The notes under the pieces: model-generated
The model's database searches: none
Told to the model about the DNA's origin: nothing
What the model saw: the letters and a program-made list of their open reading frames with translations, nothing else
Shown here: positions 19,437 to 27,649 of the stretch, in pieces
Layout of the letters: every line of letters starts with the position of its first letter
Numbering within the stretch: position 1 is the stretch's first letter
Virus record (IMG/VR): IMGVR_UViG_3300049491_000419
Coordinates: 27,483-91,482 of that record
Direction: 5' to 3' (one strand)
Source: a virus
DNA: 64,000 nucleotides
Translations under genes and position numbers: made by a program

Positions 19437-20147
19437 ATGGCTACACAAGATGGAAATATTGCATATGATATGTTATTTGTTGATGAATTTTATCATCACG
19501 CATATCCCGATGGCACTGATGAACATAAAAGTTTCTATGTAGATACAGTTCTTCGCGGTGAAATACAAATATCTACATTCATTGAAAATGCCATTGCAAA
19601 GGCTGGTGGCCTTGAAAGAAACAGTAAGTTTGCAATGGATTTAGATGATGGTTCGGAGGTTAAGAGCGCTGTAAGCTCATACAGAAACAATCACGTTATT
19701 AAGGGTCAATGGATGCATACTTATGAAATAAGTAATGTTCATACAAAGACCGGACCATTAAGAATTGTTGGGTATAACAAGATTATCAAAAAGTTTGAGT
19801 TTTATTTTATACCTAATTCTGCATTTTCACATCTAAAGGGAGTTCTAACACTGCCGATAGAAACATATAGTGGATATTATGCATCATTGGGTATGTCTCC
19901 AACTTTTACAGGGGTTCGAACTAGCGATAGCAAATGGCATCAATATCAAGTGGCTGATTTTATCACAATGTGCAAGATGCGAGCACCGACTCCACCGAAT
20001 ATTTCTTTACCAGTTGTTGATTCTGACATTTTGACCAAAAATGATCCCATTCCACAAAACGCCATCCCTTATAGTCAATACATCGAGTGGTTAAAAACTC
20101 GAGATTCTCAGGAAACACCACCCACTGACCCTTGCGTGATATCTTAA
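19437..20147 (+). CDS. Hypothetical protein, possible PD-(D/E)xK nuclease
   Basis: MDLDDGSEVKS (D...E-x-K) motif, AAGGA SD, own promoter; 3' end overlaps the resolvase on the opposite strand. Confidence 0.55.
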   Translation: MATQDGNIAYDMLFVDEFYHHAYPDGTDEHKSFYVDTVLRGEIQISTFIENAIAKAGGLERNSKFAMDLDDGSEVKSAVSSYRNNHVIKGQWMHTYEISNVHTKTGPLRIVGYNKIIKKFEFYFIPNSAFSHLKGVLTLPIETYSGYYASLGMSPTFTGVRTSDSKWHQYQVADFITMCKMRAPTPPNISLPVVDSDILTKNDPIPQNAIPYSQYIEWLKTRDSQETPPTDPCVIS

Positions 20148-20487
20148 TGAGAATAAGATTTAGATCACCCTCATCCTCGACTTCCTTTTGCTGTGCAATC
20201 CAGGAGTCGAGGATTTTCACATCCGCATACCAGAGTTGATGAAACGGAAAATCAGCATAGGATTTACATTCTATGTTCCAATGCTTCCATGCCTCTGGTG
20301 GATGAATATCACCCTTCTTACCTTGTAGCTGTGCTGAGTCGATTTGAGATTTGCGGAATGTATTCTTCCCGCCAACAAAGGCGCCCGATGATGGAATACG
20401 AAGAAACGATTCTGAATAGGTCTCACTAAGAAACTTAGCTACTTCTAGTTCCCACGCATTACCTTTAGCTTTACTTTTTGATGGCAT
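19963..20487 (-). CDS. Holliday junction resolvase (Hjc-like PD-(D/E)xK)
   Basis: SKAKGNAWELEVAKFL...GDI...IECK. Start probably MPSKS at 20487. Confidence 0.75.
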   Translation of the reverse strand: MPSKSKAKGNAWELEVAKFLSETYSESFLRIPSSGAFVGGKNTFRKSQIDSAQLQGKKGDIHPPEAWKHWNIECKSYADFPFHQLWYADVKILDSWIAQQKEVEDEGDLNLILIKISRKGQWVVFPENLEFLTTRCIDYKGWRFVEWDHFWSKCQNQQLVKKYSVESVLASCTL

Positions 20488-20519
20488 TATAACCCCTGTT
20501 TTCATTATTTACCACCACT

Positions 20520-20528
20520 TGATAAATA
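20520..20528 (+). promoter_or_regulatory. Late promoter box TGATAAATA
   Basis: Upstream of AGGAG SD and ATG 20551. Confidence 0.75.
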
Positions 20529-20550: not shown

Positions 20551-21135
20551 ATGTTCCCAGTATCATTTGAAAAAGCTATTGATCATGCCATGCTTTACGA
20601 AGTAGGCGGATTTTGGAAGCTTACACCAGACGTAAGAGCAGGACTTATCGACACACCAGCACAAAGAAAAGCGGTAGGTTATGTCGATGATCCACTTGAC
20701 CGTGGTGGTGAGACAAAATTCGGTGTCGCTAAGAATGCTAATCCAGACCTCGATATTACAAATCTTGATTGGGAAACCGCTGAGGCTGTATATTATGACC
20801 GTTATTGGGTTGCAGGTGCTTGCGGCAGTTTGCCACCGCGAGTTGCCGTTCTACACTTTGACGGCTGTGTTAATCACGGCATTAGTAGAGCTAAGAAATT
20901 CTTGCAGGGTGCAGTTGGTGCTGAACAAGACGGAATTGTCGGGAGACAAACTCTAGCAGCAGTTTCCGCTATGGACCCAATTGCTGTATGTGAAAGTATC
21001 TGCTTACAACGTGCAAAATTCTACCGTGACATTGTCGCAGCTAAACCAGCTCAAGAAAGATTCTTAAAGGGTTGGTTGCGTAGAATTGACGAAATGCATA
21101 TCTTTACAACAGATCCATCAGTCACTTTTGAGTAA
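20551..21135 (+). CDS. Glycoside hydrolase family 108 lysozyme with C-terminal peptidoglycan-binding domain (putative endolysin)
   Basis: E.GG...YVDDPLDRGGETKFGV, FDGCVNHG, DGIVG.QT, FLKGWLRR motifs. Confidence 0.88.
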   Translation: MFPVSFEKAIDHAMLYEVGGFWKLTPDVRAGLIDTPAQRKAVGYVDDPLDRGGETKFGVAKNANPDLDITNLDWETAEAVYYDRYWVAGACGSLPPRVAVLHFDGCVNHGISRAKKFLQGAVGAEQDGIVGRQTLAAVSAMDPIAVCESICLQRAKFYRDIVAAKPAQERFLKGWLRRIDEMHIFTTDPSVTFE

Positions 21136-21139
21136 GGAA

Positions 21140-21800
21140 ACAGGGCTTTTTAGCCCTGTGTCAATATTGTCTGCCCACATGCGGCAGCGATGCTAAAATA
21201 GCTTAACAGTTCATACTGTTCAAGCAAATTTACATAGATAGCGGGACTGACGCGCCCCGTGAACGTACAAGGCCACAGCGTATAGGTTTTACACATCAAA
21301 ACTACAAAGCACACAAAACCCAAATCTTTTCTAACTCCCAAAGCAAAATTTCTTTTACACATTATAAGGTTAGCGAGCCTAGTTAATAATTTCGCCGGCG
21401 TGTCTTTCGGAAAGGAGAGCAACAGCCAGTGTCCGCTGAATGTGCAGTGGCAAGATTGTAAGAACGCCACCACTGTGGTAAGTAAGACGATCGATAAAGT
21501 TTGCAGCAAATATGTGAAAACAGGGTATGGTTTGCTGGTCGCGTAAACATTGGCTGAACGATGTTTGCATTGCGATGAGGACAGAAAGATGTTACAACAT
21601 CCGGTCCCCCTTTCGGAACGCTTAATAGCGTGTAGTTGACATAATCAATCCAACACTACAGAAATATTCCGATTCAGAGTCTGGTGACGCTGTCAAGTGT
21701 TCCCTATCTAAGGTTTTAGATACCCTTGGTCTGACTCCTCCGTCAAACTTATCTCTTCTACTGTAGTTTGAGCGAAGCGGCTAAGCCAGAACGAAAAACG
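21140..21800 (+). ncRNA. Putative large structured non-coding RNA (family unknown)
   Basis: About 670-bp intergenic gap with no credible ORF, dense in hairpins and a multi-stem junction; G-U pairs favour the + strand. Confidence 0.55.
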
Positions 21801-21808
21801 AGCGTAGT

Positions 21809-22384
21809 TTACGAAGCGAGTGTTTCGTGAGTGGCGCGGTCTGTAAGACCGACAGCAGTGACATCGCTCTTCTTGTAAATGCGTTTTGCGAGTTTAACCA
21901 CTTCTTGATTCGCTTCTAAGCTAATGTCTACATGTGGTCTCAACTGTATACGAAATATTTCGTTTGAATACGTTTCGACACCCACGACTCCTGTGAACTT
22001 CTGGAAATACAATGTCACAAATGCGCTAAGACGCAACTCCACCTCTCCGATCAGTGATGGTAGTTCTTCCTTCGTTACAGGATCAATGTGACGCATGAGT
22101 TTAATCTCGCCTTTTGTGATGTACATCTCAGTGAACATGTGACGACCTTCTGACTTTTTCATGTAGATGTAACCAGGTTGTCGAACCAATGTCTTTCTGG
22201 AAAATAATTCAATATTGAGTTCTCTATTAGGTAACGTGTCCACTTCATACGGACTCCACTTAATGCTTTGCGCATCAAGTAATCTTGACAGTTCATAAAC
22301 CCAACGGTGCTTAGGATAACGCTCCCAGCATTCGATATCATCCTTAGGGATGTCGAACTCTTGCGTGTCTGTTTTTCTGTGCAT
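21809..22384 (-). CDS. Hypothetical protein (191 aa)
   Basis: GAGG SD before ATG; follows the gp51-like frame; protein-like composition. Confidence 0.8.
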   Translation of the reverse strand: MHRKTDTQEFDIPKDDIECWERYPKHRWVYELSRLLDAQSIKWSPYEVDTLPNRELNIELFSRKTLVRQPGYIYMKKSEGRHMFTEMYITKGEIKLMRHIDPVTKEELPSLIGEVELRLSAFVTLYFQKFTGVVGVETYSNEIFRIQLRPHVDISLEANQEVVKLAKRIYKKSDVTAVGLTDRATHETLAS

Positions 22385-22393
22385 ATGTACCTC

Positions 22394-22627
22394 TTACATG
22401 TATTCCTTGGCGTTTGGATTTTGCGCCTTTAGTTTCCTGTTGATTACCTTAATAAAAATCTCTCTGTCTTCAAAGCTTGCACCCCATAAGCTATTCCATT
22501 CAATACCGCCACCCATGTGGAGAGCGATCTCGGCCATTTGTTCTCTAAGAGCAAACGAATCCCTGACATATGATTGAATGAGGTCACCTAATTGTTCAGG
22601 TGGTAAAAAGATTAGTGACCTTATGAA
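22394..22627 (-). CDS. gp51-like baseplate/tail assembly segment, probably reached by -1 frameshift from the gp26-like gene (not in ORF track)
   Basis: Open frame FIRSLIFLPPEQLGDLIQSYVRDSFALREQMAEIALHMGGGIEWNSLWGASFEDREIFIKVINRKLKAQNPNAKEYM*. First ATG is at 22537; the frame overlaps the end of gp26 at AAATTTT. Confidence 0.7.
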   Translation of the reverse strand, partial: FIRSLIFLPPEQLGDLIQSYVRDSFALREQMAEIALHMGGGIEWNSLWGASFEDREIFIKVINRKLKAQNPNAKEYM

Positions 22628-22633
22628 AAATTT
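22581..22633 (-). promoter_or_regulatory. -1 programmed ribosomal frameshift signal (A AAT TTT plus downstream hairpin)
   Basis: X XXY YYZ heptamer at 22633-22627 in the gp26 frame; 5-nt spacer; stem AGGTCAC-TAAT / ATTA-G-GTGACCT (22621-22581). Confidence 0.65.
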
Positions 22634-23469
22634 ACAGGATTAAAGTCAATTTCGCTTTCCCATTCGTGAGTGCATTTTTCGCACTTAGCTGTGAAGGAAC
22701 GCTTAATACCAATTTGGTTAATCTCATCGATTAGGTCGCCGATCTTGTCTACACTTTTCTTATCAATATTTTGTAGAAAGTCTTTAATGAACTTTGGGTC
22801 TGAAACATTAATGCCTTGCGAATCATCAACAACCTTAACGACACCAGCAGTCATTAGTTCAAACTTAATGATTGCTACTTGCTTAAATGATGTGGTGAAA
22901 ATTGCAGACCTTTGCTCATCTGAGAGCGTCTGGCTTTCGATTGCTCTTGAAAGCTTTGTTTGTTCAAACTGTGCATGTAACGCTTTTAGCAATTCAGGGA
23001 ATGAATAAGGCTTAACAAATACTGACAATCCGTTATCCAAATTGATAACATATTCTGGCTCAAGTTCTGCCATATTGTCAAGTGCATATTGTAAGTCGAG
23101 TTTGAAGGTATTCTCGTGAGTACATTTTGGGCACTTTAATGTAGTTTCAAGCGCATCGTTGTATGTTGCATAACGAATTGCTGTAATCAGTGCGTCAATG
23201 TCGTTTGTTAATAGAGCGCGTGGCTGCTTCACAGCAGGCACGCAACTTGTAAGGACTTCGATTAAAGCCTCACCATTTAATAATGCGTCTGGATTCTTAA
23301 GGGCAAGTTCGTCCTTGCCAGTCATAGGCAGAATGCCAATTTCACCCTTATCTGTGAATTCAATGATACCCGGCTTGTAATAACTTGTGCCGCTAGGAAC
23401 TTTCAAGTACATCTTGAACTGCCTAAAATATTGCTTTAGCGGGTTGTTTTGCTGTACGGATGGTTCCAT
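22621..23469 (-). CDS. gp26: Baseplate hub assembly protein, gp26-like
   Basis: NPLKQYFRQ...LPMTGKDEL.LKNPDALLNG...D.DAL..AIR.ATY, two CxxC motifs, ends DFNPVNFS. Confidence 0.75.
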   Translation of the reverse strand: MEPSVQQNNPLKQYFRQFKMYLKVPSGTSYYKPGIIEFTDKGEIGILPMTGKDELALKNPDALLNGEALIEVLTSCVPAVKQPRALLTNDIDALITAIRYATYNDALETTLKCPKCTHENTFKLDLQYALDNMAELEPEYVINLDNGLSVFVKPYSFPELLKALHAQFEQTKLSRAIESQTLSDEQRSAIFTTSFKQVAIIKFELMTAGVVKVVDDSQGINVSDPKFIKDFLQNIDKKSVDKIGDLIDEINQIGIKRSFTAKCEKCTHEWESEIDFNPVNFS

Positions 23470-23491: not shown

Positions 23492-23500
23492 TGATAAATA
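23492..23500 (+). promoter_or_regulatory. Late promoter box TGATAAATA (tape measure/head operon)
   Basis: Intergenic, upstream of ATG 23551. Confidence 0.7.
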
Positions 23501-23520: not shown

Positions 23521-23529
23521 TATTTATCA
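23521..23529 (-). promoter_or_regulatory. Late promoter box TGATAAATA (gp26 operon)
   Basis: Intergenic, upstream of GAGG SD and ATG 23469. Confidence 0.7.
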
Positions 23530-27424: not shown

Positions 27425-27649
27425 ATGAAAGCTAAAGATTTACTTGTTGAATTCTATGACCCTGCCGATGATGAACTGGGGCAAGCAAAGATGGATGACA
27501 CTCGTCGTCCACGCTTAACTATGCTTCATTTGCAAAAACTTAGGAAATCACGCGATGCTGAAAAGTACGAAACTGCTCAGCACCTTAACTTCCTACCCGA
27601 TATGTATAGTCCTCCACCCGAGGAAGCTGGCGCGCCCGCCGGCCTATAA
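27425..27649 (+). CDS. Small head-module protein (74 aa)
   Basis: Between portal and core genes; DTRRPRLTMLHLQKLRK motif. Confidence 0.75.
   Translation: MKAKDLLVEFYDPADDELGQAKMDDTRRPRLTMLHLQKLRKSRDAEKYETAQHLNFLPDMYSPPPEEAGAPAGL

Follow-up and report, generated by a model that had tools for sequence, protein, structure and literature searches.

Background

Strong covariation support is rare among large bacterial and phage RNAs beyond ribosomal RNA, RNase P RNA, transfer-messenger RNA (tmRNA), group I and II introns, OLE, GOLLD, ROOL and raiA, and each of these large RNAs has led to new biochemistry or to a new RNA architecture. Two of them are carried by phages and prophages and have no known function: GOLLD (RF01998), also from lake metagenomes, is more than 800 nt long and forms a homo-oligomeric nanocage, a 14-mer, and ROOL (RF03087) is a pseudoknotted RNA of about 580–660 nt with no known protein partner. 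Group I introns (RF00028), frequent among T4-like phages, share with the GIR1 lariat-capping ribozyme (RF01807) a compact core of 300–400 nt with many helices, long-range pairing of the pseudoknot type and highly conserved unpaired nucleotides. The prohead RNA (pRNA) of phage phi29, of about 120–174 nt, is a phage-encoded structured RNA that forms a multimeric part of the virion-assembly machinery. The subject of this study is a conserved non-coding element of ca. 590 nt in a 64,000-nt stretch of viral DNA (the window; positions 27,483–91,482 of IMG/VR record IMGVR_UViG_3300049491_000419), which is compared here with these RNAs.

An earlier note on the window, made from the letters alone, had pointed to a large gap between the lysozyme and tail-assembly genes, and had proposed that it encodes a large phage RNA of the ROOL/GOLLD size class without hallmarks of tmRNA, RNase P RNA or group I introns. 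Both proposals hold. The flanking open reading frames (ORFs) end at 21135 and 21809, leaving 673 nt (21136–21808) without a credible gene between two convergent stops, and the gap contains a covarying fold of ca. 590 nt that matches no Rfam family. That this is a real structured RNA gene, on the plus strand and of a new family, is nearly certain. A gene of a new family of large structured non-coding RNA is also, with high confidence, the best overall explanation of the region ca. 21160–21750.

A covarying fold on the plus strand

The checks named in the earlier note included comparison with shuffled sequences, a search for covarying structure in relatives, and a search of Rfam; the outcome of all three favours such an RNA. 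Relative to dinucleotide shuffles, the plus strand of the gap has a folding z-score of −2.68, with none of 20 shuffles as low, while the minus strand has a z-score of −1.28. A conserved fold was found in the relatives, and Rfam has no matching family. From 20 sequences RNAalifold derived a structure of 80 pairs, and compensatory change is present in 42 of these. In a mutual-information scan with average product correction, most of the top-ranked column pairs were Watson–Crick in every sequence.

The full model has 111 pairs in 22 helices, and two pseudoknots. In a MAFFT alignment of 26 sequences (alignment A3), 93.5% of cells are paired and 72 of the 111 pairs have changed on both sides, compared with 17–32 when the 3' partners are slid by 1–3 columns. 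The covariation score of the model is 0.377, versus 0.064–0.080 for the slid versions, and 0 of 500 shuffles reach the observed values – the aligned sequences are related, so shuffle controls overstate significance and the slid controls are fairer.

For the central domain (window 21500–21676) a covariance model, R1, was built with 178 positions and 49 pairs. In an Infernal alignment of 28 sequences to this model, 96.8% of cells are paired, 38 of the 49 pairs show compensatory change, and the covariation score is 0.542 versus 0.061–0.082 for slid pairs. Because this alignment is fitted to the structure, the MAFFT figure is the more cautious of the two.

The pairing is not symmetric between the strands. 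There are 155 G–U cells and 14 A–C cells, and the same columns that are paired in 96.8% of cells on the plus strand are paired in 86.3% when read as the minus strand. The excess of G–U therefore places the RNA on the plus strand, as the earlier note had argued from wobble pairs. The asymmetry also bears on the possibility that the inverted repeats act in DNA, as a replication origin or terminus, a packaging site or a cluster of protein-binding sites. The region is non-coding, hairpin-rich and at a convergence point; it has several short repeats (CAAAUC-like, CGAAG, and the motifs R1 and R2 described below), and two copies of the element lie about half a genome apart in two complete genomes, all of which would suit a DNA element. 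However, one-strand asymmetry would not be tolerated by DNA cruciforms, and covariation extends to the pseudoknots and the long-range pairs. With a GC content of 0.44 the gap is not AT-rich, and cumulative GC skew makes no turn at 21 kb. An origin or packaging role, which had been kept as an alternative in the earlier note, is thus disfavoured, and a DNA element of any of these kinds is extremely improbable.

A coding function was rejected. No ORF is conserved – the longest open frame in the homologs varies in strand, in frame and in length, from 59 to 162 codons – and 365 of the 410 indels counted against the window have lengths not divisible by three.

Anatomy of the RNA

The helices, motifs and conserved boxes of the RNA are listed in Table 1 together with the genes and promoter-like motifs around it. 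Five of the stems that had been read from the window alone (P2, P10, P12, P14 and P15) are backed by covariation. Support for P18 is partial, since its strands have a competing register. P1 is a hairpin, but in part of the family only. The hairpin just past the lysozyme stop is likewise real, but it is found in some relatives only and lies outside the conserved RNA (alignment A1 columns 25–66); it was not called as a terminator in a terminator scan. Two further proposals had to be given up: the arms of GUGGC/GCCAC belong to separate conserved hairpins, P7 and P9, and the bases of a suggested long-range pairing, CAGCCAGUGU/ACAUUGGCUG, sit in P5, P12 and a different pseudoknot.

Table 1. Positions of the RNA, its parts and its surroundings (window coordinates)
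Feature	Position	Strand	Remarks
GATAAATA late-promoter-like motif	20521–20528	+	23 nt before lysozyme ATG
Endolysin (lysozyme) gene	20551–21135	+	Glyco_hydro_108 and PG_binding_3 (Pfam E 8.6e-17 and 1.6e-14); PHROG 315 endolysin
Hairpin ACAGGGCU/AGCCCUGU	21141–21159	+	past lysozyme stop; 8-bp stem, no U-tract
Type A structured non-coding RNA	21160–21750	+	ca. 590 nt; limits set by conservation
5' extension	21160–21326	+	type A only; absent in type B copies
Box TRTCAAKATT	21160	+	conserved, 5' extension
P1 CUGCC/GGCAG	21166–21191	+	hairpin; variable
Box CUAAAAUAG	21193–21201	+	conserved, 5' extension
P2 AACAG/CUGUU	21205–09/21216–20	+	covariation
P3	21241–45/21256–60	+	5' extension
P3-loop pseudoknot	21250–53/21278–81	+	5' extension
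P3b	21285–89/21316–20	+	tentative; would close the first 31 bases of the linker
Linker	ca. 21290–21365	+	G-poor, C/A-rich; variable length; CAAAUC-like repeats (alignments A1–A3)
Conserved core	21366–21750	+	ca. 390 nt, P4–P19; common to type B
P4	21373–77/21391–95	+	core
P5	21397–99/21425–27	+	core
P6	21404–08/21415–19	+	core
P7	21433–38/21445–50	+	core
P8	21454–59/21487–92	+	core
P9	21466–70/21475–79	+	core
P10 CAGCAAA/UUUGCUG	21504–10/21531–37	+	strong covariation; CGGUGGG/CCCGCCG in many relatives
P11	21538–42/21572–76	+	stacked with P12
P12 AAACAUUG/CGAUGUUU	21543–51/21560–68	+	covariation
Long-range pseudoknot, P12 loop CUGAA/UUCAG	21554–58/21673–77	+	96.9% paired; both bases changed in 3 of 5 pairs
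P13	21579–82/21604–07	+	core
P14 GAUGUU/AACAUC	21588–92/21597–601	+	covariation
P15 UCGGAA/UUCCGA	21613–18/21667–72	+	closes three-way junction with P16 and P17; covariation
P16	21619–21/21628–30	+	junction helix
P17	21632–36/21655–59	+	junction helix
P17 loop UGACAUAAUCAAUCCAAC	21637–21654	+	near-invariant 18 nt; family signature motif (invariant columns in A3)
P19	ca. 21683–21705	+	hairpin
Motif R1 CUGUCAAG	21690–21697	+	GUCA core is the P19 hairpin loop
P18 UAUCUAA/UUAGAUA	21705–22	+	hairpin; partly supported
Motif R2 CCGUCAAA	21740–21747	+	same-sense copy of motif R1; 3' edge of conservation
Stretch GAUACCCUU-GGUCUGACUCC	core	+	invariant
Variable spacer	21751–21808		conserved CGAAG/ACGAAGCG repeats, reaching the stop of the 191-aa gene (alignment A1 columns 1001–1044)
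191-aa gene	21809–22384	−	convergent; no family match; constant type A neighbour
gp51-like baseplate hub gene	22621–23469	−	Pfam T4_baseplate, E 8.5e-22; PHROG 150
GATAAATA motif	23521–23528	−	upstream of gp51-like gene

In one lineage both strands of the long-range pseudoknot with the P12 loop have become UUAUA/UAUAA, and the mutual-information pair 21554–21677 is CG in 18 cases and UA in 7. Within the loop of P6 there is a covarying non-canonical pair, G–G changing to A–A. AGGGUAU and AUACCCU, a second long-range pair suggested in the earlier note, are complementary and may pair; nearly all of their letters are invariant, and an A–C mismatch breaks the pairing in a six-sequence sub-clade. 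In alignments A1–A3 no helix was supported in the linker beyond P3b.

Beyond the conserved RNA, repeats of the CGAAG/ACGAAGCG type (window 21751–21830), conserved among relatives, lie on both sides of the 191-aa stop codon. They may serve as a terminator in both directions or belong to the RNA's 3' end.

Two motifs that change in parallel

Near its 3' end the RNA contains two same-sense copies of a short motif, R1 and R2. (The name R1 has two uses: the 8-nt motif at 21690–97 and, separately, the covariance model of the central domain.) The core of motif R1 forms the P19 loop in 39 of 42 homologs, on more than 30 different stem sequences. The two motifs change in parallel – GUCAAG, GUCAUG, GUCAGG, GUUAAG, GGCAAG, GUCGAG, GGUGAU-like and CCCAAA versions were found – and the best mutual-information partner of each motif R1 column is the matching motif R2 column. 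The first five letters are identical between the motifs in 33 of 42 non-redundant sequences, compared to a mean of 9 and a maximum of 16 in shuffles; these counts are inflated by the relatedness of the sequences, yet several independent variants show the pattern.

The parallel covariation of R1 and R2 is not explained by ordinary base-pairing. No covarying Watson–Crick partner of either motif was found across the RNA, by regular expression with G–U allowed or by mutual information over all columns. A UGAC at 21732–35 is able to pair with either copy, and its pairing with the GUCA of motif R2 is kept in 96.2% of cases with zero compensatory change. As a partner of the motifs this UGAC was rejected: it fails to follow the larger changes of some lineages.

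There is evidence that the constraint acts within the molecule. One genome with two forms of the RNA, types A and B (described below), has GUCAU at both motif sites of its type A copy and GUCAAA at both sites of its type B copy, therefore each copy matches itself. A protein factor acting in trans and shared across the genome is unlikely, given that the motifs of the two types differ within one genome. A further candidate, that the interval between R1 and R2 is a reverse-transcribed protein-coding repeat unit, was rejected by eye: the 50-nt unit has stops on both strands, and its length ranges from ca. 50 to 105 nt. At the 3' end of one type A copy (L184, genome G002), a 16-nt unit that includes motif R2 (ACTCCTCCGTCATCAT) is tandemly duplicated.

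Relatives and distribution

A search of IMG/VR with both flanking proteins gave 77 loci. The lysozyme and 191-aa genes are convergent at every locus that holds both, and the gap and gene order are retained in all relatives that have the 191-aa gene. The gap is 544–794 nt long in the relatives, with two exceptions of 1.5–1.8 kb that have an extra co-directional ORF after the lysozyme gene. In one of these (L025:3046–3867) the extra ORF encodes 273 amino acids with no match; in the other (L014:5235–6401) it encodes a 388-aa glycine-rich protein with a PKD domain. In both, the RNA starts directly past the stop of the extra gene. DNA identity to the window is 70–84% over ca. 550 nt of the gap, even though identity between the flanking proteins is just 50–85%. 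The nhmmer and blastn matches cover ca. 21160–21750 in all relatives.

Additional homologs were found by motif. A degenerate 26-nt pattern, taken from the loop with the highest conservation, matched 36 IMG/VR stretches, and a 21-nt version matched 68 metagenome stretches from the Joint Genome Institute (JGI), of which 60 are true homologs; the other 8 were rejected as chance matches to the 21-mer alone. Among the homologs the order lysozyme gene, RNA, 191-aa gene and gp51-like gene, with the last two genes facing the RNA, is nearly universal. The window itself scores 177.5 bits (E 2.4e-50) with covariance model R1, and has both the P17 loop motif and the type A gene order.

The family is specific to one uncultured clade, jumbo phages of ca. 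360–385 kb with T4-type baseplate genes. Neither the gap (blastn) nor the 191-aa protein (tblastn) had a match in 50,697 isolate-phage records. Seven jumbo-phage records of 239–350 kb with a lysozyme homolog but another gene order lack the RNA, and covariance model R1 had no match in Ralstonia phage RsoM2USA, which holds the best relative of the lysozyme. The specificity follows from this absence in isolates and in the 239–350 kb relatives. Three complete genomes with terminal repeats carry the RNA, of 363, 369 and 385 kb. The IMG/VR record of the window is 91 kb, with a CheckV completeness of 24%, which implies a phage of roughly 380 kb.

A second type of the RNA

Several metagenome homologs match the 3' two-thirds of the profile only, and have none of the three type A flanking genes. 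These type B copies score 93.5–108.6 bits with covariance model R1. In the alignment they extend from P4 to motif R2, with a different P5–P9 region and without the 5' extension and linker. They are found in ORF-free gaps of ca. 585–630 nt, facing a convergent PhoH gene. The upstream gene encodes either a P-loop kinase (APS_kinase-like) or an NT5C/HAD protein (loci L135, L146, L148, L158 and L186). For the NT5C/HAD protein of L148 there was a second, weak hit (E 1.5e-4) to phrog_415, which carries the annotation polynucleotide kinase. The type B neighbourhood hints at nucleotide or RNA-end metabolism.

Two complete genomes, G001 and G002, encode both types, 182 kb apart in a genome of 385 kb and 195.5 kb apart in one of 369 kb. 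The distance is about half a genome in both, which may be a coincidence. The window's own 91-kb fragment has a type A copy only.

One locus (L012:4574–5367, on the contig of L032) possibly represents a third variant, in which another 3' domain has taken the place of the core. It retains the gene order and an ORF-free gap, here of 794 nt, but homology is limited to the 5' extension (profile positions 2–136). No core was found there by nhmmer or with covariance model R1, and unrelated ORF-free sequence of ca. 630 nt is in its place.

Neighbouring genes and transcription

The co-directional gene immediately 5' of the RNA in the window is the endolysin gene. The GATAAATA motif occurs 17 times in the window (between 4904 and 63455), versus 3.3 expected, mostly directly upstream of genes and with divergent pairs at 23493/23521 and 52658/52704. 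On this distribution it is the putative late-promoter motif of the phage, of the T4-like kind. It precedes both the lysozyme and the gp51-like genes, therefore both flanks look like late units converging on the RNA. The scan of the plus strand of the gap found no convincing sigma-70 promoter and called no terminator, and no motif enriched in the phage fits as a promoter of the gap's own. The CUAAAAUAG box was considered as a promoter motif, but it is not enriched in the window, so this role is not evident.

In all cases the RNA begins 0–50 nt past the stop of the co-directional gene, whatever that gene is, and ends facing a convergent gene. An intrinsic terminator or simple 3' untranslated region (UTR) was rejected as an explanation because no plus-strand terminator was called in the gap and because 22 conserved helices are present. 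A more elaborate element acting in cis was weighed separately: a long 3' UTR that would shield the late lysozyme mRNA from 3' exonucleases, insulate the convergent late units from each other, or both, with no function as a free RNA. The exact placement of both types at convergence points speaks for it, as do the late motif on both flanks and the lack of a recognised promoter. On the other hand, one or two hairpins would be enough to stop an exonuclease or end transcription, and this RNA has 22 conserved helices, two pseudoknots and near-invariant 18-nt loops. The core is also kept behind unrelated genes – those for lysozyme, the PKD-domain protein, the P-loop kinase and the NT5C/HAD protein – and in some relatives a canonical terminator hairpin is already present upstream. 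A cis-acting element of this sort is quite unlikely.

Elsewhere in the neighbourhood, a 236-aa ORF with no family match (19437–20147, plus strand) overlaps a PDDEXK/RusA-like resolvase gene (19963–20505, minus strand) by ca. 185 nt. One of these calls or starts is probably wrong.

Possible roles of the RNA

Several observations count against the picture of a free-standing RNA gene, or limit how exactly it can be drawn. The 5' and 3' ends are placed by conservation alone. The RNA is in no cultured phage among the isolate records searched. No tRNA genes lie near the RNA, unlike the case of ROOL and of GOLLD, which is frequently adjacent to tRNA genes or has a tRNA in its linker. The relatedness of the aligned sequences has been mentioned above. 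Several relatives have a terminator-like hairpin with a U-tract after the upstream gene and ahead of the RNA, which counts against simple read-through and in favour of an unrecognised promoter belonging to the RNA itself.

A trans-acting scaffold or assembly mechanism, suggested by analogy, is a possible but tentative account of what the RNA does. The RNA would be synthesised late, at the far end of the transcription unit of the lysozyme gene, from the GATAAATA motif at 20521, and might then be trimmed to a stable species. Instead of regulating the genes beside it, it would act in trans as a folded machine or scaffold – an assembly of RNA only or a component of a ribonucleoprotein, along the lines proposed for GOLLD and ROOL. 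The 18-nt P17 loop and other near-invariant loops may be surfaces for tertiary contacts or for contact with a partner, and motifs R1 and R2 could be two interchangeable copies of one docking sequence. A trans-acting RNA is favoured because the 22 helices, pseudoknots, invariant loops and free-standing paralog exceed what termination or mRNA protection needs.

A bolder reading places the RNA in a new class of large RNAs that organise themselves or act as catalysts, with the conserved 390-nt core as an autonomous machine. This is unlikely, but an autonomous core would account for two differently decorated paralogs in one genome. If it were true, the identity of R1 and R2 would be functional, with one docking or template-end site that accepts either copy. 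It would point to conformational exchange, handover of the 3' end or a repeat-guided polymerase jump, unlike anything in the descriptions of GOLLD, ROOL or OLE.

Aside from its mechanism, the family has several features of value. Its secondary structure is unusually well determined; it is modular, with the core alone or together with the 5' extension; its position within the late genes is constant in a defined clade of 360–385 kb phages; and it has the R1=R2 signal. The RNA is short enough for in-vitro transcription and cryo-electron microscopy, which makes its architecture and oligomeric state directly testable. The P17 loop motif and covariance model R1 can serve as markers of the clade in freshwater, sediment and soil metagenomes.

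Comparison with known RNAs

No Rfam 15 family matched the 64-kb window at its gathering score. A search of 20900–22100 and 11 homologous loci with permissive filters, at E ≤ 10, returned noise only. ARAGORN found no tRNA or tmRNA in the window, and 0 tRNAs in 12 related loci of both types. The RNA is not described in the literature consulted on large structured RNAs in jumbo phages, nor in one 2026 preprint, which was searched by term.

A tmRNA or RNase P RNA was rejected for want of a match with Rfam or ARAGORN, and a group I intron because no model matched and because the element lies between the stops of two convergent genes. This leaves the chance that the RNA is a highly divergent member of a described class – GOLLD, ROOL, a group I intron or derivative, RNase P RNA or tmRNA – that the covariance models missed. 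Its size, phage origin, pseudoknots and layout, with the 3' part conserved and the 5' part variable, do recall GOLLD. Against this, no Rfam 15 model reaches E = 10 in the window or the 11 homologous loci, even with permissive filters. There is neither a tmRNA nor a tRNA nearby by ARAGORN, and an element between two stop codons has no exons to join. Divergent membership of a known class is very improbable.

The group I introns and GIR1 resemble the RNA in their compact multi-helix core, long-range pairing of the pseudoknot type and highly conserved unpaired nucleotides. Unlike them, it has no host gene or exons and no homing-endonuclease ORF, and their models do not match it at E ≤ 10. The phi29 pRNA is a functional analogy only, prompted by the location of the type A copy in a late morphogenesis region. 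It is much shorter, structurally unrelated and without an Rfam match here, and type B lies among genes that resemble those of nucleotide or RNA metabolism.

ROOL is similar in length, in being carried by phages, in its pseudoknots and in having no known protein partner or function. Its covariance model does not match, and while ROOL is spread across many bacterial phyla and prophages, the RNA described here is found in one clade of jumbo phages of 360–385 kb. GOLLD is likewise a large phage RNA of unknown function that is also found in lake metagenomes, and the layout here, in which an unstructured linker lies between a variable 5' extension and a conserved 3' core, is comparable to that of GOLLD. 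GOLLD is longer (more than 800 nt, compared to ca. 590 nt), and its covariance model is also unmatched. In contrast to GOLLD, the RNA of the window has a constant position in the gene order, flanked by late structural and lysis genes. It is rated here as a new class of RNA, a family of its own, whose nearest analogues are GOLLD and ROOL; these are analogues and not relatives.

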